Made by a program: the position numbers and the translations under genes. Positions 5,615 to 36,442 of a stretch of 57,386 nt of DNA are shown one piece after another (within the stretch, counting starts at the first letter, position 1; every line of letters starts with the position of its first letter). Source of the stretch: Acidobacteriota bacterium (lineage in GTDB: Bacteria > Acidobacteriota > Vicinamibacteria > Vicinamibacterales > Fen-181); NCBI GenBank assembly GCA_025363775.1, contig JANYLG010000005.1:1-57386 (forward strand), written 5' to 3'. The notes under the pieces are model-generated. The model made no database searches and was not told the DNA's origin. It saw only the letters and a list, made by a program, of their open reading frames with translations.

Positions 5615-8356
5615 ATGCCTAAATCACTTGTCATCGTTGAATCGCCTGCCAAGGTGAAAACGCTCTCTCGCTTCCTCGGCCCCAACTACCGGGTGGAGGC
5701 GAGCTTCGGTCATATCCGGGATCTTCCCGAGAGCGCCGACGAGGTGCCTGCTGAGATTCGCGACAAGTCCTGGGGCAACCTGGGAGTTGATACGGACGGC
5801 GACTTCAAGCCCTACTACGTCATCCCGGCGTCCAAGCGGCGCCATGTCACCACGTTGCGGGCGGCCATGAAGGACGCCTCCGAGGTGCTCCTGGCGACAG
5901 ACCCCGACCGCGAAGGCGAATCGATCAGCCAGCATCTCAAGGAAGTTCTGAAGCCCAAGGTTCCCGTCCGGCGGGTCACGTTTCACGAAATCACCCGCGA
6001 GGCGGTCGAAGCAGCGGTGGCCGGTGCGCACGACCTCGACGAGAACCTCGTCAGGGCCCAGGAAAGCCGTCGAATTCTCGACCGGCTCTACGGGTACACC
6101 CTGTCCCCTGTGCTCTGGAAGAAAGTGCGGACCGGCTTGAGCGCCGGGCGTGTACAGAGCGTGGCCGTCCGGCTCATCGTCGAGCGCGAGGAGGCCCGGC
6201 GGGCGTTCCGCAGCAGCACCTACTGGGATATCGAGGCCCGCCTCTCGGCAGAAAACCGGGAGTTCGGGGCGGTGCTCTCGCGCGTCGGCGACCAACGGGT
6301 GGCGACGGGCAGGGATTTCGACTCGACGACAGGGGCGCTGGCGACCAGGAGCGTTCGACATCTTGACGAGCGCACGGCGCGGCAGTTGGCGCAGGTGCTG
6401 GAGCAGCACCTTCCGTGGAAGGTGACGGCCGTGGACGAACGGCCGGGGACCGAGCGCCCGGCGCCTCCCTTCACCACGTCCACGCTCACGCAGGAGGCGA
6501 GCCGGAAGCTGGGTTTCTCCACGAGCCGGACGATGCGGATCGCCCAGCGGCTCAAGGACGGCGTCGAGCTGTCCGACGGGACGATCGAGGGCATCATCAC
6601 GTATCACAGGACGGATTCGACGACGCTCAGCGACAAGGCGCTGCGCGAGTCGGGCCTTGCCATCCGCGAGATGTTCGGCGACGAATACTACCAGGGGCCG
6701 CGGCGGTACCAGACGCAGGTCCGAAATGCCCAGGAAGCGCACGAAGCCATCCGGCCCACCGAGTTCACTTTGACGCCCCAGCGGCTGGCGGGGGGCCTCA
6801 ACGCTGACGAACTGCGACTCTACGACCTCATCTGGAAGCGGACGATGGCGTCGCAGATGCCGGACGCGCGCGTCCTGAAAACCACCGTCGAGTTCACCGC
6901 CTCCGGGCCTGCGGGCGAGACGTGCGTGCTGACGGCTTCCGGCAAGGCTATAGAGTTCGCGGGCTACCGTCGGGCCTACGTCGAGGGCAGCGACGACCCG
7001 GACAGCGAGCTGGAAGCGCAGGACACGATCCTGCCGGCCTTCAAGCCAGGCGACCTCGTCGCGGCACCCGGGCAGGCGGCCGCCGGCGTGGACAGGCCGA
7101 AGGCCGTCCTTGCGCGCGTCGATCCAAAGAAGCACGAAACGACGCCGCCGGCGCGGTTCACGGAAGCATCGCTGATCAAGAAGCTCGAAGAAGAGGGAAT
7201 TGGCAGGCCCTCCACCTACGAGCCGACGATCGAGACGATTCTGCGGCGCGGCTACGTGTTCCGGCAGGGCAAGGCGCTCGTGCCGAGCTTCACGGCCTTC
7301 GCGGTCACACGCCTGCTGCGCGACCACTTTGCGGACTTCGTGGACATCGGGTTCACCGCGGAGATGGAGAAGGACCTCGACGAGATCTCGAACGGCGAGC
7401 GTTCCTGGCTCGATTTCATCCGCGAGTTCTTCCGCGGCGATGGCAAGCAGCGCCGGGGTCTCGAGGCAATGGCCCGGGATGGCGAGCAGCGGATCGACTA
7501 CCCGGTGGTGGCCATCGGGGTGGATCCGGAGAGTGGCCAGGAGATCCGGGTACGCATCGGGAAGTTCGGCCCGTTCCTCCAGGTCGGCGACGGGGGCGCG
7601 GGCAACACGGCGTCGCTGCCCGACGACCTCCCGCCGGCGGATCTCACCGTGGAGAAGGCCATGTCACTGGTTCGGGCGAAGGCTGCCGGGCCGCGGGATC
7701 TTGGCATCGACCCGGCCACCGATCAGCACGTGTACCTCGCGACCGGTCGCTTCGGCCCCTACGTGCAGCTTGGCGAGACACCGGAGAAACCGGCGAAACC
7801 GGCGAAGGGCACGAAGGCCGAGAAGCCCAAGCGGGCGTCGTTGCCGCGCGGTGTCACGGAAGCGGAGATCGATATGGCGCTGGCGCTGCGCCTGCTCAGC
7901 CTGCCGCGCCGGCTCGGCAACCACCCCGAGGACGGCCAGGATATCGTGGCCAGCGCGGGCCGCTTCGGACCGTACGTGAAGCACGGGGACGAGTTCCGGT
8001 CGCTCGACCCTGACGATGATGTCTACACGGTGAGTCTGGAGCGCGCCTTGGCCCTGTTCGCGGCGCCAAAGCAAACCAGGCGGCGCCAGTCGGCTACCCG
8101 AACGGTGCTGCGCGAGCTTGGCGTCCGCGAGGACACGGGTGTCGCGGTCACGTTGCTCGAGGGGCGATACGGGCCGTACGTGTCCGACGGGACGACCAAC
8201 GCGTCGCTGGCGAAGGGCGCCGACCCGGCGAACATCGGCATGCGCGAGGCCATCGACCTGCTCGAGGCTCGGGCGGCGGCGGGGCCGAAGAAAAAGGGGA
8301 CGCGCCGCGCCGCGACCGGTGGCCGAAAGCGCAAGCAGCCGGTCGGGGTGTCGTAA
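5615..8356 (+). CDS. topA: DNA topoisomerase I (C-terminal Topo_C repeats, no zinc ribbons)
   Basis: LVIVESPAK, ATDPDREGE, SAGRVQS, ITYHRTD (catalytic Tyr), GIGRPSTY; four G[RK][FY]GP[YF] repeats and a basic tail. Confidence 0.98.
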   Translation: MPKSLVIVESPAKVKTLSRFLGPNYRVEASFGHIRDLPESADEVPAEIRDKSWGNLGVDTDGDFKPYYVIPASKRRHVTTLRAAMKDASEVLLATDPDREGESISQHLKEVLKPKVPVRRVTFHEITREAVEAAVAGAHDLDENLVRAQESRRILDRLYGYTLSPVLWKKVRTGLSAGRVQSVAVRLIVEREEARRAFRSSTYWDIEARLSAENREFGAVLSRVGDQRVATGRDFDSTTGALATRSVRHLDERTARQLAQVLEQHLPWKVTAVDERPGTERPAPPFTTSTLTQEASRKLGFSTSRTMRIAQRLKDGVELSDGTIEGIITYHRTDSTTLSDKALRESGLAIREMFGDEYYQGPRRYQTQVRNAQEAHEAIRPTEFTLTPQRLAGGLNADELRLYDLIWKRTMASQMPDARVLKTTVEFTASGPAGETCVLTASGKAIEFAGYRRAYVEGSDDPDSELEAQDTILPAFKPGDLVAAPGQAAAGVDRPKAVLARVDPKKHETTPPARFTEASLIKKLEEEGIGRPSTYEPTIETILRRGYVFRQGKALVPSFTAFAVTRLLRDHFADFVDIGFTAEMEKDLDEISNGERSWLDFIREFFRGDGKQRRGLEAMARDGEQRIDYPVVAIGVDPESGQEIRVRIGKFGPFLQVGDGGAGNTASLPDDLPPADLTVEKAMSLVRAKAAGPRDLGIDPATDQHVYLATGRFGPYVQLGETPEKPAKPAKGTKAEKPKRASLPRGVTEAEIDMALALRLLSLPRRLGNHPEDGQDIVASAGRFGPYVKHGDEFRSLDPDDDVYTVSLERALALFAAPKQTRRRQSATRTVLRELGVREDTGVAVTLLEGRYGPYVSDGTTNASLAKGADPANIGMREAIDLLEARAAAGPKKKGTRRAATGGRKRKQPVGVS

Positions 8357-26920: not shown

Positions 26921-28462
26921 ATGGACACACGCGAACAGCTCACGCAACTGGAGAAGGCGGCGGAACTGGGCGGCGGCGAAGCGCGCCTTCGGCGCCAGCA
27001 CGAAGCGGGCAAGCTCACCGCGCGGGAACGGATGGACCTGCTCTTCGACGCCGGGACCTTCGAGGAGCTCGACAAGCTGGTGGTGCACCGGTGCCGCGAC
27101 TTCGGGATGGAAGACCAGGTCATCCCGGGCGACGGCGTGGTCACCGGATTCGGTCGCGTCGAGGGCCGCATGGTCTATGCCTTCGCGCAGGACTTCACGG
27201 TGTTCGGCGGGTCGCTCTCCGAGACCAACGCCGCCAAGATCGTGAAGATCATGGATCTGGCCGTGCGCCAGGGCGCGCCGGTCGTCGGGCTCAACGACTC
27301 GGGCGGTGCGCGCATCCAGGAAGGCGTGATGTCGCTGGCCGGCTACGCCGACATCTTCCTCCGCAACACGCTGGCCTCGGGCGTCGTCCCGCAGATCTCC
27401 GCGATCATGGGTCCGTGCGCGGGTGGCGCCGTCTATTCACCCGCGATCACCGACTTCATCGTGATGGTCGAGGGCACGAGCTACATGTTCGTGACTGGGC
27501 CTGACGTCGTGAGGACCGTCACGCACGAGGAGGTCTCCAAGGACGACCTCGGCGGAGCGATGACGCACAACGCGAAGAGCGGCGTGGCGCACTTCGCGGT
27601 CGCCGACGATCGCGAGTGCCTGCTGCTGATCCGCGAGCTCCTGGGGTTCCTCCCGGGCAACAACGTGGACGACCCGCCGCGCCGCGAGACGAGCGACCCG
27701 TTCGATCGCGAGGACGAAGCGCTCGACCACCTCGTGCCCGAAGCGCCGAACCAGCCCTACGACATCCTCGACCTGATCCACGGCGTCGTGGACGACGGGC
27801 ACTTTCTCGAGGTGCAGCACTACTACGCCCGGAACCTGGTGATCGGGTTCGCGCGGCTCGGTGGCCGCTCGGTGGGGATCGTCGCCAACCAGCCGGCGCA
27901 CCTGGCCGGCGTGCTCGACATCGACGCCTCGGTCAAGGGCGCCAGGTTCGTGCGCTTCTGCGACGCGTTCAACATTCCGATCGTCACCTTCGAGGACGTG
28001 CCGGGGTTCCTGCCGGGGACGCAGCAGGAGTTTGCCGGGATCATCCGCCACGGCGCGAAGCTGCTGTTCGCGTTCGCCGAGGCGACGGTGCCGAAGGTGA
28101 CCGTGATCACGCGCAAGGCGTACGGCGGGGCGTACTGCGTGATGTCGAGCAAGCACATCCGCACCGACATCAACTTCGCGTGGCCGACCGCTGAAATCGC
28201 GGTGATGGGGCCGGAGGGGGCGGTCAACATTCTCTACAAGCGCGAGCTGGAACGGGCCGAGGACCCGGCGGCGCTGCGGGCGGCGAAAGTCGCGGAGTTC
28301 CGAGCCAAGCTGGCCAACCCGTTCGTCGCCGCAAGCCGCGGCTTCCTCGACGAGGTGATCATGCCGCGGACAACGCGGCGGCGGCTGATTACCGCCCTCG
28401 CCTCGCTCGAGTCGAAGTGCGATCGGAATCCGCCGAAGAAGCACGGGAACATCCCGCTGTAG
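26921..28462 (+). CDS. pccB: Acyl-CoA (propionyl/methylmalonyl-CoA) carboxyltransferase beta subunit
   Basis: [47 protein letters not shown]-terminal KKHGNIPL. Confidence 0.93.
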
Positions 28463-28472
28463 GACAGCGTTC

Positions 28473-28573
28473 GGCTCACGGCGAAAGGCCACGGGCGAAG
28501 GGCTGAAGGCCAGAGGCTCACGCCACGAGCGGGCCGGACGCCGCCTCGAGTCGACAGCCGCAAGCCGCGAGCC
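28473..28573. repeat. Heptamer arrays: 7x GGCNNNN followed by 3x oppositely oriented NNNAGCC
   Basis: GGCTCAC GGCGAAA GGCCACG GGCGAAG GGCTGAA GGCCAGA GGCTCAC (28473-28521); GACAGCC GCAAGCC GCGAGCC (28553-28573). Confidence 0.6.
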
Positions 28574-28622
28574 GGTATAGACTCGAGCGTTCGGTGCAGC
28601 CCATACCACGGAGGATCACCCG

Positions 28623-30590
28623 TTGGATATCAAGTCGCCCGACTTCTACGCGGAAATTGGCCTCATCTCCGGTCTCGAAGTCCATCAGCAGCTGTTCACC
28701 GACCGCAAGATGTTCTGCCGCTGCCCTGCGCGCCGGTACACCAGTACGCACGACGGCGAGGTGCTGCGGCACATGCGCCCGACGCTTTCGGAGCTTGGCG
28801 AGTACGACGGCACGGCGCTGATGGAGTTCAAGACCAGGAAGAACATCATCTATCTCCTCCACAAGGAGAACGTCTGCACATATGAGATGGACGACACGCC
28901 CCCGTTCCTCGTAAACCAGGACGCGGTGGACGTCGCCATCGAGCAGTGCCTGATGCTCGGCTGCGACATCGTGGACGAGGTGCACATCGCGCGGAAGCAG
29001 TACCTCGACGGGTCGATCCCAACCGGCTTTCAGCGCACCGCCATCGTGGGCGTCAACGGGCGCCTGCCGTTCCGGGGCCGCGAGCTGACGATCCTCCAGG
29101 TGAGCGTCGAGGAAGATTCGTGCCGCGAGGTGTCGGATGAGGGCCACCTGATCATCTGGCGCACCGACCGGCTCGGGATACCGCTCATCGAGACGGTGAC
29201 GGGGCCGGACCTGCGAACGCCCGATGAAGTGGCGGACGCGATCCTGTTGATCGGCCGCGTGTGCCGGAGCACCGGCCACGTGCGCGTGGGGTCGGGCGCG
29301 AGCCGCCAGGACGTCAACGTCTCGGTGCGCGGCGGCCGGCGCGTGGAGATCAAGGGCGTGCCGAAGGCGGGCTGGGCGCCCGGACTCGTGCATGGCGAGG
29401 CGACCCGCCAGGTGAACCTGCTGAGGCTGCGCGACGAACTGATCCATCGCGGATGCACCACGGCCGACTCGATCGGCGTGGAGAGCGCGGATGTCACCTC
29501 GCTGTTCGCGTCTTCGGAAGCCTCGTTCCTGACGGTTGGGGGCTGGGAGAAGTACGCGCGCGACGAGCAGCGCCGAGCCGGCTTCGAGATCGGGAACGGC
29601 AAGTTCACGGTGCGTGCGATTCGCATGAAGGGGCTTGGCCACACGCTCGCATGGCCGACGCAGCCCGATTGCATCTTCGCGCACGAGCTGGCCGGCCGCA
29701 TCCGCGTGATTGCCGGCCTCGACCAGCGGCCGATCCTCCTCCACAGCGAGAAGTGGCCCGACTACCACCGTTCGCTCCAGGAACTCCGCAAGGTGCGCGC
29801 GCGCCTCCAGTGCAATCCGGAGGACGGCATCGTGCTGGTGTGGGGTCCCGACGAAGACACGGTGACCGCCGCCGACGAGGTGCGGCTGCGGTACATCGAC
29901 GCCATCAACGGCATCCCGAACGAGACCCGGCAGCCATTCGAGGACGGCAGCACCGATTTCGAGCGGATCCTGCCGGGGCCGGATCGTATGTACCCGGACA
30001 CCGACAGCCCGCCCTCACGGGTGACCCGCGATCGCGTCGAGCGGCTGCACGCGGCGCTCTCGCCGCGCCCGTGGGAACGCGAGGCCCGCTACAGCGCCGC
30101 GGGTGTTCCCACCTCGACCACGCATTTCCTGATCCGGCGGGGCGCGGCCCGGCTGGTCGATCTCGTGACCGACGTCTGCCGCGCCCCGGTCAAGCAGGCC
30201 TGCGTGCTGTTTGGTGAGCGGGTGAAAGGGCTGCGCCGCGACGGGGTGCCGGTGGACACGGTGTCCGATGATCGCTGGTGCGAACTGTTCATGGTGGCCG
30301 GACGGTGTCTGCGGCTGTGGGAGGCGTGGGACCTGATCGTGCGCGCCCTCGCGGCCGCGCCCAACCGGAGCGTGGCGGCCATCGTGGTGGACCTCGGGCT
30401 CGGCGCCACGCCGGACGGATGGCGCCAGAGCGTGGGAGCCGCCGTCACCGAGGCCTCCGGCAGGCTCTTCGCGCCGGGCAACGACCGGCTCTCCCGATTC
30501 TCGATGGGGCTTGCGATGCGCGAGCTTCGTGGCAAGGTTCCGGCGCTCGAGGTTGCAGACGCCGTCAAGACGGAGATCGCATCGCGATGA
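28623..30590 (+). CDS. gatE: Glu-tRNA(Gln) amidotransferase subunit E (archaeal-type)
   Basis: GLEVHQQL..KMFC, RPTLSELGEYD, DGS..GFQRT, EEDS.R, DRLGIPLIE, RQDVNVS..GGRRVEIKGV, GAD-like insertion, PG..RMYP.TD, tail MG.AM.ELRGK. TTG start after GGAGG. Confidence 0.9.
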   Translation: MDIKSPDFYAEIGLISGLEVHQQLFTDRKMFCRCPARRYTSTHDGEVLRHMRPTLSELGEYDGTALMEFKTRKNIIYLLHKENVCTYEMDDTPPFLVNQDAVDVAIEQCLMLGCDIVDEVHIARKQYLDGSIPTGFQRTAIVGVNGRLPFRGRELTILQVSVEEDSCREVSDEGHLIIWRTDRLGIPLIETVTGPDLRTPDEVADAILLIGRVCRSTGHVRVGSGASRQDVNVSVRGGRRVEIKGVPKAGWAPGLVHGEATRQVNLLRLRDELIHRGCTTADSIGVESADVTSLFASSEASFLTVGGWEKYARDEQRRAGFEIGNGKFTVRAIRMKGLGHTLAWPTQPDCIFAHELAGRIRVIAGLDQRPILLHSEKWPDYHRSLQELRKVRARLQCNPEDGIVLVWGPDEDTVTAADEVRLRYIDAINGIPNETRQPFEDGSTDFERILPGPDRMYPDTDSPPSRVTRDRVERLHAALSPRPWEREARYSAAGVPTSTTHFLIRRGAARLVDLVTDVCRAPVKQACVLFGERVKGLRRDGVPVDTVSDDRWCELFMVAGRCLRLWEAWDLIVRALAAAPNRSVAAIVVDLGLGATPDGWRQSVGAAVTEASGRLFAPGNDRLSRFSMGLAMRELRGKVPALEVADAVKTEIASR

Positions 30591-31981
30591 CCACGCCAGC
30601 AGACGCGCTCAAGGGATACAAGGGCCATGCGCGCGCCGCGCTCGAGCGCTGGGGCGTGCGCGTGTGGAGCGACGTGCAGCTGGAGAACGACGCCGGCAGC
30701 CAGTTCGAGGGCGTCATCCTCCCGCGGAGCGAGACCCAGGACGACCTCCACGTCGTCATCAAGCTGAAGAACGGCTACAACGTTGGCCTGCACGTGGACC
30801 GCGTCCGGTCGGTGAAGGAGGTCGGCTACAAGGAAGCCATCTACAAGATCCCGGAGAAGGAGTTCCCGCGTCGGCCCAACCTGCCGGCCGTCACATTGCT
30901 CGGCACGGGCGGGACGATTGCCTCGCGCCTCGACTACCGCACGGGCGCCGTCATCCCGGCCTTCACGCCGGGCGAACTCTACGGCGCGGTTCCCGAACTC
31001 GCCGATATCTGCAACCTGACGACGAAGAAGCTGTTCGGCGTGTTCTCGGAGAACATGGCGAAGGAGCAGTACATCGAGCTGGCGAAGGCCATCGGCGAGG
31101 AGATCGAGAACGGCGCCGATGGCATCGTGATTGGCCATGGCACCGACACGATGGGGCATACGGCCGCGATCCTGTCGTTCATGGTGCAGGACACGCCGGT
31201 GCCGATCGTGCTGGTCGGCTCGCAGCGGTCGAGCGACCGCCCGTCGAGCGACGCCGCGCTCAACCTGATTCACTCGGTACGGGCCGCCGCCTACTGCGAC
31301 ATTGCCGAGGTGCAGATCTGCATGTTCGGCCCGACATCGGACCGCTACGGCCTGCTGCACCGCGGTACGCGCTGCCGCAAGATGCACAGTTCCTACCGCA
31401 GCACGTTTCGCACGGTGGGCGACATCCCGTTGGGCACGGTCGGCCGCGACAGCTTCACCTACCTCCACTCGGACTACCGGAAGCGCGACAAGACGCGGAA
31501 GGTCAAGATCGACGCGGTGTACAACGATCGGACGACCATCCTCTACTACTACCCGGGGATGTCGCCGGACCTCGTGGACGCGCTGGTGGAGAAAGGCTAC
31601 CGCGGCATCGTCATCGCGGGCACCGGCCTGGGCCACGTCAACAAGCCGCTCTACCCGGCGCTCGAGAAGGCCATCCAGAAAGGCGTGCACGTCGTGATGA
31701 CCGTGCAGACGCTCTGGGGCTACGCGCAGATGTACGTGTACGACACGGGCCGCGACCTGCTCGAGATCGGCGTCGTGCCGCTCGACAACATGCTGCCTGA
31801 AACCGCGCTGATGAAGCTGTCGTGGGTGCTCGCCCACACCGATGATCACGGCGTGGTGCTGCGGATGATGCGGGCGGTGGTGTCTCACGAGATCACCGAC
31901 CGCGAGCCGCACAACGGGTACCTGATCATGCAGGGCGGACTCCCGGAGATCGACGAGTTCATCCTGTCGCACTGGAAATGA
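30587..31981 (+). CDS. gatD: Glu-tRNA(Gln) amidotransferase subunit D (asparaginase-like glutaminase)
   Basis: GatD-specific N-domain (EGVILPR...IKLKNGYNVG), TGGTIASRLDYRTGAV, HGTDTM, GSQRSSDRPSSDA, HRGT..RKMHSS. ATGA overlap with gatE. Confidence 0.92.
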   Translation: MTTPADALKGYKGHARAALERWGVRVWSDVQLENDAGSQFEGVILPRSETQDDLHVVIKLKNGYNVGLHVDRVRSVKEVGYKEAIYKIPEKEFPRRPNLPAVTLLGTGGTIASRLDYRTGAVIPAFTPGELYGAVPELADICNLTTKKLFGVFSENMAKEQYIELAKAIGEEIENGADGIVIGHGTDTMGHTAAILSFMVQDTPVPIVLVGSQRSSDRPSSDAALNLIHSVRAAAYCDIAEVQICMFGPTSDRYGLLHRGTRCRKMHSSYRSTFRTVGDIPLGTVGRDSFTYLHSDYRKRDKTRKVKIDAVYNDRTTILYYYPGMSPDLVDALVEKGYRGIVIAGTGLGHVNKPLYPALEKAIQKGVHVVMTVQTLWGYAQMYVYDTGRDLLEIGVVPLDNMLPETALMKLSWVLAHTDDHGVVLRMMRAVVSHEITDREPHNGYLIMQGGLPEIDEFILSHWK

Positions 31982-31990
31982 ACTCCGGCA

Positions 31991-32039
31991 GGATTCAGGA
32001 GTCAGGAGTCGGGAGTCAGGATTCGGGATTCAGGGGTCA
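31991..32039 (+). repeat. Seven-copy heptamer tandem repeat (GGAKTCR)
   Basis: GGATTCA GGAGTCA GGAGTCG GGAGTCA GGATTCG GGATTCA GGGGTCA, just after the gatD stop. Confidence 0.85.
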
Positions 32040-32051
32040 GCAGAGGCCGGA

Positions 32052-34307
32052 ATGGACTGCAATCTCCACCCTACATTTCTCCTTCTGCCCGCAGGCAGGC
32101 GCGGTTCGACGGCCTGCTGGCTGGCGTTTGGGTTCGTGCTCGTGTTTGTCGCCGTCGCGACGGCGGCGCGGCCCGTGGTCCCGGCTGACCTCTTCGGCTT
32201 GAAGGACATCGGCGAACTGCAGGTGTCCCCCGACGGCCGCACGGTGGCGCTGACCGTGATCACTACCAACCTGGCGGCCAACCGCGTGCTGTCGCAGTTG
32301 ATGACGATTGACAGCGGCGGTGGGACTCCCGCGCCGGTTCCGGGCGTCCCGGACAATCCCTCCAGCCTCCGCTGGGCTCCGACAGGCGCGCGCCTGGCCT
32401 TGATCGCCGCGGACAGCGGGGGCAGCGCCATCTGGGTGTGGGACGTCGCGAGCGGCCGCGTGGCGCGAGTCTGCAACTACAGCCGTGGCAACGGTTTTCA
32501 GTCAAAGGTGGGCAATGCGCTTGCTTGGTCTCCCGACGGGGCCCGACTGGCCTTCGTGGGCACGGCCGACCCCTCACCGCCGCCGCAGGATCCACTGGTC
32601 ATCTCCCGCCTGCAGTACAAGACACGGACCGCATTCTCGGACAACCGTCCATCGCACATTTTCGTCGTCCCGGTGGCAGGCGGCGCGCCGCGCCCTGTCA
32701 CGTCCGGGCCGTTCGACGAGCACTCGATCGCCTGGGGGGGGGACGGCCGCGAGATCGTCTTTCTCTCGAACCGAGAATCCGACCCGGACGCCAGGCTCAA
32801 CTACGACGTCTTCGCCGTGAACGTTGAGGCGGGCAGCATCCGGCGCCTGACCGAGACGCCCGGCGTCGAGTTCGAACCGCAGGTGTCTCCGGACGGTCGC
32901 TGGATCGCGTTCATGGCAACCACGCGGCCCATCACCACGATCGACAGCATCGCCGAGGATGCGCACGTCTGGGTGATGCCGGCCGGGGGCGGCAGCGCCC
33001 GGGAGCTGAACGGCGCGCTCGACCGTCGCAGCAGCACGATGCTGTGGACGCCGGACAGCCGCCGGATTGTCTACCTCGCGGCCGACCACGGAAAGACGCT
33101 CGTGATGGAGGTCACGTCGGACGGACGCGAATCGCGCACCCTGGTGGATCGCCCGGTGCACGTGTCGCTCCTCACGATGGCGCGCGACGGTTCGCTCGTG
33201 CTGGCGCTGTCGGACGCCGCCACGCCCTACGAGGTGTTTCGTCTTCGAGGACCGGGCGGCGACCTGCAGCCCCTCACGCAGTTGAACAGGGACGTCACGG
33301 CCGGCTGGACGCTGGTGGCACCCGAGACGGTGACGTTTCGGAGTGTCGATGGCACAACGATCGAAGGCTGGTTTTACCCGGCATCGGTCCCGGGCCGACG
33401 CGTCCCGATGCTGCTGACGATCCACGGCGGTCCGCACGGCGCCTTCGGGTACGCCTTCAACGGCGGCGCGCAGGTGAACGCATCGCGCGGCTACGCGACG
33501 CTCGCCCTCAACCCGCGTGGAAGCACGGGGTACGGACAGGCCTTCACGGACGGCTGCGTCGGCAACTGGGGCGGCGGCGACTACAGCGATCTCATGGCGG
33601 GCGTCGACTACATGCTGAAGACTCACCCGGACATCGATCCCGATCGGCTCGGCGTGACGGGCGGCAGCTACGGCGGGTTCATGACCAACTGGATCATCAC
33701 GCAGACCCACCGCTTCAAGGCTGCCGTGGCGGTGGCGAGCCTCTCGAACCTCACGAGCTTCTATGCGACCTCGTTGTACCAGGACCTGGTGCACGCGGAG
33801 TTCAACGGGTTCCCATGGTCCGGGGACAACTTTGCGCGGCTCTGGCAGTGGTCTCCGCTTGCACACGTGGCCGGCGTCACGACGCCCACGCTGTTCATAC
33901 ACGGTGAACAGGACAACGACGTGCACATCACGCAGGCCGAGGAGATGTACACCGCACTGCGCCGCCAGGGCGTGGACGCGGTGTTGGCGCGCTATCCGCG
34001 AGAGGGCCACGGCTTCCGCGAGCCGCAGCACTCGCTCGACCGCATGATCCGCACCCTCGACTGGTTCGACAAATACCTAGCGAGGGCCTCTTCGCAGGCG
34101 CGGAGGGGAGACCATGTTCACCGACCTCGGCCATCTGGCCGTCATGTTCCTGAAGGAGGCGCCGGACGGCAAGGCCATGGCGGCAGCTTTTTGCCCGGAC
34201 GCTCGGAGGAGTGCGACGCAGCTCCCGGGATCGATCGGCCCGCCGCCCACCACTGCCGCCCTCGACGGCACGAGGAAGCCCAAGGCGGGTGGGGTGGCAA
34301 GTGCTAG
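32052..34307 (+). CDS. S9 family peptidase (acylaminoacyl/dipeptidyl peptidase) with beta-propeller
   Basis: Signal-like N-terminus, SPDG (PD40) repeats, IHGGP, nucleophile GGSYGG, catalytic D (GEQDNDV) and H (EGHG). Atypical tail after WFDKYL. Confidence 0.92.
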   Translation: MDCNLHPTFLLLPAGRRGSTACWLAFGFVLVFVAVATAARPVVPADLFGLKDIGELQVSPDGRTVALTVITTNLAANRVLSQLMTIDSGGGTPAPVPGVPDNPSSLRWAPTGARLALIAADSGGSAIWVWDVASGRVARVCNYSRGNGFQSKVGNALAWSPDGARLAFVGTADPSPPPQDPLVISRLQYKTRTAFSDNRPSHIFVVPVAGGAPRPVTSGPFDEHSIAWGGDGREIVFLSNRESDPDARLNYDVFAVNVEAGSIRRLTETPGVEFEPQVSPDGRWIAFMATTRPITTIDSIAEDAHVWVMPAGGGSARELNGALDRRSSTMLWTPDSRRIVYLAADHGKTLVMEVTSDGRESRTLVDRPVHVSLLTMARDGSLVLALSDAATPYEVFRLRGPGGDLQPLTQLNRDVTAGWTLVAPETVTFRSVDGTTIEGWFYPASVPGRRVPMLLTIHGGPHGAFGYAFNGGAQVNASRGYATLALNPRGSTGYGQAFTDGCVGNWGGGDYSDLMAGVDYMLKTHPDIDPDRLGVTGGSYGGFMTNWIITQTHRFKAAVAVASLSNLTSFYATSLYQDLVHAEFNGFPWSGDNFARLWQWSPLAHVAGVTTPTLFIHGEQDNDVHITQAEEMYTALRRQGVDAVLARYPREGHGFREPQHSLDRMIRTLDWFDKYLARASSQARRGDHVHRPRPSGRHVPEGGAGRQGHGGSFLPGRSEECDAAPGIDRPAAHHCRPRRHEEAQGGWGGKC

Positions 34308-34349
34308 AATGCTCGAGGATCAGCCGTATCCACGCCAGTCCAGACACGC

Positions 34350-35870
<1,521 letters not shown>

Positions 35871-35920
35871 AACCTCTGGCCGGTTTTCCGTCACGCTCAG
35901 ATTGAGAGCCCGGGGTCGCC

Positions 35921-36442
35921 ATGAACTTCGAGATTGAGGTCAACGGTCAGCCGCACGCGGTCAAGGTCGAGCGCGTGGGCTCCCGCTATCGGATCGAATC
36001 GGAGGGGCGCGTGGACGTCGTGGACGTCGCTCGGGTGGATCGCACTACAATCTCGATGATCCTGGTTGGTGAACGCCAGAGCAGCCACGAGGCGACGCTG
36101 CTCGATCGGCGCGAGCCCGGCGAAGTCGAGGTCCATCTTCGCGCCGGCGTCGTGCATACCCGCGTCGCCGGCGCGCCAGGTCAACGCCGCTGGATCGCCA
36201 GCGGTGCGGTGTTCGGCGGGGCGGGCGGGCCGCAGCGCGTCACGGCTCCGATGCCGGGCAAGATCGTCAAGGTGCTGGTGAAGCCAGGCGACACGGTCGC
36301 GGCGCGGCAGGGTCTCGTCGTCATCGAGGCGATGAAGATGGAGAACGAGTTGCGGGCCGCGCGCGCGGGCCAGGTGAAAGACGTCCACGTGGCCGAAGGC
36401 GACGTGGTCGAGGCCGGGCGACTCCTGACGGTGATCGAGTGA
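35921..36442 (+). CDS. Biotin carboxyl carrier protein
   Basis: APMPG and EAMKMEN biotinylation motif. Confidence 0.95.
   Translation: MNFEIEVNGQPHAVKVERVGSRYRIESEGRVDVVDVARVDRTTISMILVGERQSSHEATLLDRREPGEVEVHLRAGVVHTRVAGAPGQRRWIASGAVFGGAGGPQRVTAPMPGKIVKVLVKPGDTVAARQGLVVIEAMKMENELRAARAGQVKDVHVAEGDVVEAGRLLTVIE

Follow-up and report, generated by a model that had tools for sequence, protein, structure and literature searches.

An Intact gatDE Operon in a Bacterial Contig

The stretch of DNA analyzed here (the window) is the 57,386-nt contig JANYLG010000005.1 of an Acidobacteriota bacterium, whose genome (G000, hereafter the host) is a metagenome-assembled genome (MAG) of 226 contigs, 83% complete. 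It carries an operon for GatDE, an amidotransferase of two subunits known from archaea. The first gene, gatE (28623..30590, + strand), encodes a bacterial-type GatE of 655 amino acids (aa), the tRNA-dependent kinase and amidation subunit; it starts with TTG, and a ribosome-binding site, GGAGG (28610..28614, +), lies 8 nt 5′ of this codon. The second, gatD (30587..31981, +), encodes a glutaminase subunit of 464 aa that combines a GatD_N domain with a type I asparaginase fold. As described in the original prediction, which had been made from the letters alone, both genes are full length and coupled by an ATGA overlap (30587-30590). A promoter and terminator scan of the locus found nothing, and the single RNA run, which held only 5% of the words, yielded short contigs that cover a portion of gatD and cannot be taken as a sign of transcription.

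Profile searches, one of the checks proposed along with that prediction, place both products in the GatDE protein family, of which the host locus is a real member. GatE exceeds the cut-offs of NF003107 (457.2 bits against 456) and TIGR00134 (378 against 319.6), and it fails all six GatB models, the best two of which give 104-119 against cut-offs of 315-338. GatD passes TIGR02153 (496.5 against 324) and NF003217, and Pfam recognizes GatD_N (PF18195) and both asparaginase domains in it, just as had been claimed. It also lies above the cut-off of the type I L-asparaginase model TIGR00519 (364.5 against 260.5), with which it has Thr-based motifs in common, but the GatD models score 130 bits higher, and GatD_N and the coupling to gatE set it apart from such asparaginases. 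The best matches in PDB are the archaeal GatDE structures 1ZQ1 (P. abyssi) and 2D6F (M. thermautotrophicus), with E values of 1e-86 for GatE (1ZQ1_C, 2D6F_C) and 3e-118 for GatD (1ZQ1_A, 2D6F_A), while PDB asparaginases reach 4e-35 at best. A combination of GatB and an ordinary asparaginase is ruled out by the profile scores, these matches and the GatE/GatB tree described below.

The order of domains is also that of archaeal GatDE (GatD_N and asparaginase fold in one subunit; cradle, insertion, helical and tail domains in the other), and the Mg ligands and asparaginase motifs are common to both. All of the GatE motifs listed in the original prediction, LEVHQQL, EED and IPLIE, were found. In the cradle (28683..29192, +), H21 (28683), E163 (29109) and E190 (29190) align with His15, Glu157 and Glu184 of M. 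thermautotrophicus GatE, which are given as Mg ligands in passages of PMC2330236. The GAD-like insertion specific to GatE (residues ~276-428; 29448..29906, +), also part of the original prediction, does align with its counterpart in 1ZQ1; however, the Pfam search matched neither GAD nor GatB_Yqey in GatE, and the HxDE motif of the insertion is lost. The helical and YqeY-like tail domains (30018..30587, +), which would bind the tRNA elbow, are retained and evolve faster than the rest, as described below.

Integrity, Synteny and Selection

Is this operon an assembly chimera, an archaeal contamination or a decaying relic? The fragmented and incomplete host MAG leaves room for such an explanation, but the following observations stand against it. 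Contigs from other runs bridge pccB-gatE, gatE-gatD and gatD-peptidase: those of X4, a run whose study also produced the possible source runs, cover 28187-28834 and 30925-32687, and those of runs from other studies cover 28429-29620 (X12) and 28563-30702 (X5), so that both junctions, whose read coverage had been marked for checking, are continuous. The gene order pccB-gatE-gatD-accC-bccp-tamB recurs in four relatives (G003, G005, G007, G009), each of which, like the host, has the operon flanked by pccB and accC, and in three of them (G003, G005, G009) hslU and the next two genes are also found upstream of the block. The GC-rich codon usage is that of the host, the G+C content at third codon positions being 0.886 in gatE and 0.925 in gatD compared with 0.84-0.92 in five neighbors; the earlier view of an old, ameliorated acquisition is supported. 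Moreover, ratios of nonsynonymous to synonymous substitution rates (dN/dS) against six relatives are low, 0.13-0.28 for gatE and 0.05-0.11 for gatD, and both genes are under purifying selection and actively maintained. There is thus practically no chance that the locus is a chimera, a contaminant or a relic. Three other relatives (G004, G012, G014) have the same flanks without gatDE, so the absence of the operon there is real.

Distribution and Origin of Bacterial GatDE

Reviews from 2008 to 2022, in the passages that treat GatDE, call it an archaeal signature restricted to archaea (PMC2330236, PMC2811023, PMC9499178), and the 2022 text (PMC9499178) says that it is now found only in archaea. 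Against such textbook statements the host locus is surprising, and at the same time it is one ordinary member of a common clade. A GTDB scan confirmed at least 596 gatE stretches, and the best 79 of these, which are the loci analyzed here, are all bacterial; they come from Acidobacteriota, Myxococcota, Planctomycetota, Bacteroidota, Ignavibacteria, Chlorobiota, WOR-3, Zixibacteria, Eisenbacteria, Aminicenantes and others. GatE proteins of these loci had been pre-filtered to 600-720 aa, which places truncated forms outside the sample. GatE clusters in the ESM Atlas are 77-79% bacterial. Closer to the host, we surveyed 61 genomes, 22 of the host family and 39 from other families of Vicinamibacterales: the GatE cut-off was passed in 14, all of the host family, with split matches in two further members and none in the 39 genomes of other families, and gatD was matched in 16 of the 22. 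Close homologues carry the NCBI labels Vicinamibacterales or Acidobacteria, which points to that order for the host, and several of them are already named GatE; such copies are no rarity. The clade is already auto-annotated as GatE/GatD by NCBI, and yet it runs counter to the archaea-only view; bacterial GatDE was not described in the open full-text literature searched, most subscription papers lying outside that search.

Where do these bacterial genes come from? The GatE alignment contained 187 full-length rows, 76 from the window and the loci and 111 from 150 cluster representatives, after fragments had been dropped. In a quick IQ-TREE analysis of cradle columns, 72 GatE rows stood apart from 9 bacterial GatB, with a support of 100 in the Shimodaira-Hasegawa-like approximate likelihood ratio test (SH-aLRT); this phylogeny, too, had been proposed with the original prediction, and it agrees with its naming of the gene. 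The bacterial-type clade had a support of 99 in this tree, and its sister (93) was a representative that shares its cluster with a Heimdallarchaeota GatE. In a careful tree of 44 rows without GatB, the bacterial-type clade was recovered at 100/99, its sisterhood with the Heimdallarchaeota-linked protein at 98/96, and a wider group including Thor- and Odinarchaeota proteins at 100/99. The host GatE is therefore an ordinary member of a large bacterial GatDE clade across many phyla. In these trees the root is unresolved, the archaeal rows are ones picked for being near the query, and some deep clade members could be archaeal; the simplest reading is that bacteria probably acquired GatDE once, from an archaeon of the Asgard type, and that it then spread among them. 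Models that explain how the codons for Gln and Asn came to be fixed draw on an archaea-only GatDE, a rule which is broken by a large bacterial clade sister to Asgard GatE.

The arrangement of the two genes varies among the loci. In L077 (4467-9791) gatD and gatE are divergent, with a dicarboxylate/amino-acid symporter gene between them; L048 has gatD ahead of gatE, and in L094 the two have four other genes between them. No fused longer form of GatE was found at E 1e-50, which is weak evidence. On plasmids, the sole GatE found is haloarchaeal: in a Natrinema "plasmid" record of 987 kb (L101, CP031304.1:704610-709456), gatE is frameshifted and unannotated.

Changes in the Bacterial-Type Proteins

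Residues and motifs were counted in 73 bacterial-type, 67 canonical archaeal and 7 Asgard-like GatE. The Mg ligands are conserved at 97-100% in both bacterial-type and canonical proteins, and the basic residues of the cradle are invariant and common to the two groups. In bacterial GatD, the motifs GTGGTI, SQRSSDRP and RKMHS are invariant (73/73), and one Thr of HGTDT is kept in 69/73. The situation differs at positions related to the tRNA. A Gln at position 240 of the M. thermautotrophicus protein is found in 65/67 canonical and 7/7 Asgard-like proteins, but in none of the 73 bacterial-type ones, the host having P247 there. We take this Gln240 to have a role in reading the A1-U72 pair; a published source for this was sought and not found. 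A short loop, whose end reads [TS][IV]RQD in 63/67 canonical proteins (TIRQD, for example) and in only 5/73 bacterial-type ones, sits beside base pair 1-72 of the tRNA according to a passage of PMC2811023; its putative equivalent in the host, residues 219-230, together with P247 occupies 29277..29363 (+). Likewise, HxDE in the insertion is present in 64/67 canonical and 3/73 bacterial-type proteins. Judging from these counts, the clade has lost archaeal tRNA-reading features and kept the catalytic core. Such swapped residues, linked to tRNA-Gln in archaea, amount to a natural experiment in tRNA selection by amidotransferases.

Selection is not evenly distributed over GatE. The cradle has dN/dS of 0.05-0.10 in five genome pairs and 0.17 in the closest pair, while the tail has 0.44-0.54, compared with 0.15-0.31 for the tail of GatB, in five genome pairs, the closest pair having too few changes. 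Over the whole clade, mean identity of the N-terminal cradle is 0.65 in bacterial-type GatE against 0.51 in canonical GatE, and that of the tail is 0.18 against 0.27. The helical and tail domains are nevertheless retained in all 76 full-length locus proteins kept (628-681 aa, within the 600-720 aa filter).

The nearest archaeal relatives in both trees are the Asgard-type GatE proteins of Heimdallarchaeota (TET29438.1, 35% identical to host GatE), Thorarchaeota (MFW9855810.1) and Odinarchaeota (MFW9990517.1). They share with the bacterial type a D-x-T-P-P-F motif and the RKQYLDGS-type N-terminal motifs, the latter being present in 72/73 bacterial-type, 6/7 Asgard-type and 0/67 canonical proteins; because they are common to Asgard-type GatE, these conserved N-terminal motifs are inherited and not new. 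In contrast to the bacterial type, Asgard-type GatE keeps the Gln240 equivalent (7/7) and HxDE (6/7), and for this reason still looks like a canonical Glu-tRNA(Gln) enzyme.

Supply of Gln-tRNA in the Host and Other Carriers

The original prediction had left open whether the operon provides a third bacterial route to Gln-tRNA(Gln) or has changed its substrate, and had proposed an inventory of related genes and an inspection of the 1-72 pair. The host has GlnRS, two bacterial GluRS, AspRS, AsnRS, GatA, GatB, AsnA, an AsnB-family gene and two glutamine synthetase (GS)-family genes, and its true gatB lies on another contig (C186) than gatE. PF00749 has three matches in the host, GlnRS and the two bacterial GluRS, and no archaeal-type GluRS is among them. 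Its tRNA-Gln(UUG) and tRNA-Asn(GUU) both have U1-A72, and no CUG isoacceptor of tRNA-Gln turned up in this genome, which is 83% complete. Thus the canonical archaeal pathway, which consists of a non-discriminating (ND) GluRS, GatDE and an A1-U72 tRNA-Gln, is not present in the host, and its GatDE stands outside it; the host copy differs from archaeal GatDE in this setting, in its lost Gln240 equivalent, TIRQD loop and HxDE, in its faster tail and separate clade (100/99), and in being dispensable within the genus.

For a wider view, 50 of the 79 loci were traced to genomes, picked for longer contigs and taxon spread; these distant carriers are MAGs, mostly with completeness not established. GlnRS was found in 42 of them, AsnRS in 42, AspRS in 46, GatB in 24, AsnA in 3 and the AsnB family in 30. 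Five of the eight GlnRS-less carriers keep GatB, and three (G065, G092, G099) have neither. The tRNA-Gln genes were read from the first pattern match alone in each of 30 of the 66 genomes, leaving aside L054 and L063 for their poor ARAGORN folds; among the 18 well-formed carrier genes, that of the host included, none has A1-U72, all being U1-A72.

Could GatDE then be an essential route to Gln-tRNA(Gln) which replaces GlnRS and GatCAB? The three carriers without GlnRS and GatB would fit, but other core synthetase genes are missing from them as well (gltX from G065 and G092; aspS and asnS from G099) and they look incomplete, and no complete-looking carrier among the 50 is without both. Since most carriers have GlnRS, none of the complete-looking ones lacks both enzymes and tRNA-Gln is always U1-A72, GatDE is not a required source of Gln-tRNA. 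With both standard routes in the host, no archaeal-type GluRS among its PF00749 matches and clean loss of the operon in close relatives (G004, G012, G014), such an essential role is very improbable, and the need for a third route expected earlier has found no support. The other half of that expectation fares better: a changed substrate is probable in view of the lost archaeal tRNA-reading features.

Possible Functions of Bacterial GatDE

If not required for Gln-tRNA, what does GatDE do? Host GatDE probably has another job, most likely one related to asparagine. The reading we favor, tentatively and with a probability of roughly 0.38, is that it is a retuned amidotransferase that supplies asparagine on a U1-A72 tRNA. 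By analogy with archaeal GatDE, GatD would release ammonia from Gln or Asn, the ammonia would pass through a tunnel to GatE within a heterotetramer, and GatE would phosphorylate, in an ATP-dependent manner, and amidate an acidic amino acid on the tRNA. Loss of the features that match A1-U72 and the archaeal GluRS may allow a bacterial U1-A72 tRNA to be accepted, in the manner of GatCAB. In cells with GlnRS and AsnRS, the main use of such an enzyme would be conversion of Asp-tRNA(Asn) to Asn-tRNA(Asn), that is, the making of asparagine, and it may belong to accessory nitrogen metabolism, kept by most family members and lost by some, often where AsnA is present.

Several observations point to asparagine. 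Gln-tRNA is already covered by GlnRS in the host and in 42/50 carriers. GatB was not found in 26/50 carriers, compared with misses of 4/50 to 8/50 for aspS, glnS and asnS, and GatDE is the only Gat-type enzyme in many carriers. Eight of the 50 have AsnRS and no match to GatB, AsnA or AsnB; in five of these eight, which were searched with Pfam at lax thresholds, Asn_synthase was not found, the GatB/GatE family had one gene, and the additional class IIb genes were no more than EpmA-like or LysRS. In a survey of 547 genera, according to Table 2 of PMC4206432, AsnRS and GlnRS without GatCAB and AsnA/B occurred in only 9. In the host family, AsnA is present in 3/16 gatD carriers against 5/6 non-carriers (Fisher p=0.011). 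In G001, the closest relative, asnA (L212, G001:C77:3400-5000) carries an out-of-frame internal deletion, by decay or through an assembly error; the host copy is intact. The tRNA-Asn of the host is U1-A72, and its GatE misses the tail motif GXXAXGX, which a passage of PMC2811023 implicates in rejecting Asp-tRNA(Asn).

Neighboring genes also have a nitrogen flavor. A GS-family gene is the adjacent gene on the same strand as gatE or gatD in 5 of the 79 loci, three times upstream and twice downstream (L036:6553-7890, L050:11355-12926, L056:2512-4047, L074:3548-5065, L089:1-1389), where rough chance expectation is ~0.1; four of the five are ~34-37% identical to a GS-like gene of the host on contig C187, unlinked to gatDE. 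Loss of glutamine synthetase in carriers was not seen, as all five carriers and all five non-carriers tested have GS-family genes. An ammonium transporter, the symporter between gatD and gatE mentioned above, and an aspartokinase each occur in a single locus. By tblastn with host proteins, no GluRS, GlnRS, AspRS or AsnRS gene was found near gatDE in the 79 loci, and scanning of 121 of 244 neighbor open reading frames (ORFs) gave no universally conserved third gene.

There is a precedent in GatCAB, which in Bdellovibrio serves asparagine beside AsnRS and GlnRS according to a passage of PMC4206432. With the GatCAB that makes asparagine in Bdellovibrio, Thermus and Deinococcus, our proposed model has in common a tRNA-dependent amidotransferase that is retained beside both direct synthetases and acts on a U1-A72 tRNA. 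The differences are that the glutaminase of GatCAB is the amidase-family GatA and not the asparaginase-fold GatD, that GatB is without the insertion and with a 3-10 turn, and that an ND-AspRS would be hypothetical in the host.

Many points weigh against asparagine supply. The host has AsnA, an AsnB-family gene and GatA/GatB, because of which GatDE is redundant there. After kinship correction, the AsnA pattern reduces to three independent pairs with a median p of 0.25 (gatB tree, 21 genomes, G020 missing), asnA replacing gatDE at the same spot was not seen in the host family, and no asnA occurs in the 79 loci. Other families of the order have neither GatDE nor AsnA (0/14) and yet have AsnRS (10/10), and absence of the AsnB family is not enriched in GatB-less carriers (9/26, against 11/24 of those with GatB). 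The GxxA part of the tail motif discriminates poorly, being counted in 14/73 bacterial-type and 26/67 canonical proteins. Some carriers, being MAGs, may simply be Asn auxotrophs. The source of Asp-tRNA(Asn) is a further difficulty. Archaeal-type ND-AspRS exceeded its cut-off in none of 66 genomes. We presume that a certain His of AspRS marks many non-discriminating enzymes, a published source for which was sought and not found; the host has Leu at this site, and among the 33 of 50 carriers that could be typed, the His is rarer in GatB-less (4/17) than in GatB-bearing ones (8/16). With no ND-AspRS match, a rarer His and a specificity that sequence does not reliably reveal, supply of Asp-tRNA(Asn) is uncertain, and the GatE insertion is predicted, in a passage of PMC2943598, to block binding of ND-AspRS. 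Taken together, these sequence comparisons suggest the asparagine reading without being decisive, and we rank it ahead of the two readings below, in the order given. If GatDE does make asparagine, a pathway hole would be filled in many uncultured bacteria that are now read as auxotrophs.

Another possibility is that GatDE still amidates Glu-tRNA(Gln), now in its U1-A72 form, as a back-up for GlnRS when free glutamine is low, with Asn as the donor, or to repair Glu-tRNA(Gln) made by mischarging. This would be the ancestral reaction, and the catalytic residues are all kept. The GatE insertion is predicted to suit GluRS and not AspRS in a passage of PMC2943598, and the adjacent GS genes suit a glutamine theme equally. 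Within ~120 nt of where gatE starts, two unrelated lineages (L026/L050; L064) have a tRNA-Gln(CUG) gene, and L065 has a tRNA-Gln-like gene whose anticodon is CUA; but 3′ halves of tRNA-Gln(CUG) recur many times in some genomes of the genus, and because these repeats suggest an integration site, the adjacency may be positional. The host's two bacterial GluRS genes also speak for this reading; however, two gltX genes track GatB, occurring in 7/24 GatB-bearing and 0/26 GatB-less carriers, and are common in non-carriers of the order (11/14). Furthermore, the complete-looking GlnRS-less carriers keep GatB (5/5), and PMC4206432 states in one passage that no bacterium is known to use both routes to Gln-tRNA. 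On balance, we regard such a back-up or corrective role as somewhat less likely than asparagine supply. The second GluRS as a partner of GatDE was rejected for its co-occurrence with GatB; the two genes are on contigs C41 and C112 of the host, beside GlnRS and GatCAB, a combination that is common across the order.

The tRNA-Gln(CUG) genes directly beside gatE are at 7792-7863 (-) in L026 and L050 and at 7839-7913 (+) in L064. The gene in L065 (4188-4263, +), ~60 nt upstream of gatE, is well formed, has U1-A72 and closely resembles the tRNA-Gln(CUG) of Holophagaceae that occupies this position in L064; its CUA anticodon may make it a natural suppressor of amber codons, or may result from misassembly. 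On three contigs (G002:C11, G003:C3, G005:C1), 4-8 copies of the 3′ part of tRNA-Gln(CUG) lie within tens of kb, which suggests tandem genomic islands integrated at this tRNA gene in the genus.

It is also conceivable that no tRNA is involved, and that GatDE is an ATP-dependent amide synthetase of two subunits whose substrate is a free amino acid, Asp (Asp+Gln to Asn) or Glu (Glu+Asn to Gln), or else a carboxyl group of a small molecule or peptide. Selection is concentrated on GatD (0.05-0.11) and on the GatD-facing cradle and not on the tail, and over the clade the cradle is better conserved and the tail worse than in canonical GatE. With never more than one GluRS and an AspRS that is mostly of the Leu type, GatB-less carriers have no obvious source of mischarged tRNA; the recurring neighbors are metabolic, and the AsnA pattern fits as well. 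On the other side, the helical and tail domains are retained in all full-length proteins kept, the basic cradle residues are invariant, and the N-terminal motifs came from the Asgard type (6/7). We know of no tRNA-free chemistry of GatB or GatE, and archaeal GatD is silent without Glu-tRNA according to a passage of PMC2330236. Amidation without tRNA is accordingly more doubtful than a Glu-tRNA(Gln) back-up. A specific form of it, to which we give a slightly lower chance, is that an Asgard-type GatDE turned into a tRNA-free Asn (or Gln) synthetase, in which the GatD glutaminase and the GatE kinase fold would be fed by a co-transcribed glutamine synthetase and would be interchangeable with AsnA; it, too, would close the gap in Asn synthesis of many uncultured bacteria.

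Neighboring Genes and Minor Observations

The spot occupied by gatDE splits a set of acyl-CoA carboxylase genes (pccB-like, accC-like and biotin carrier; window positions 26921-36442) and takes variable cargo: in relatives it holds other genes, for example a PIN-domain toxin-antitoxin-like pair, and in the host gatDE. Upstream is the acyl-CoA carboxyltransferase gene (pccB/mmdA-like, 26921..28462, +), a flank that is the same in carriers and non-carriers and lies outside the system. Downstream follows an S9 prolyl-oligopeptidase-family peptidase gene (32052..34307, +), assigned by Pfam, which is itself variable cargo and absent from the spot in the other loci compared. The biotin carboxylase gene (accC-like, 34350..35870, +), recognized by profile match and synteny, is the conserved right boundary.

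Elsewhere in the window the neighbors are bacterial, much as stated in the original prediction: rpmA (2217-2474), an ORF at 2534-2908 that we take to be rplU, ObgE, BamA/Omp85, a sigma54-type regulator, HslV and HslU were found, the match to TamB being weak. The host also has a gene for selenocysteine tRNA at G000:C78:14277-14372.

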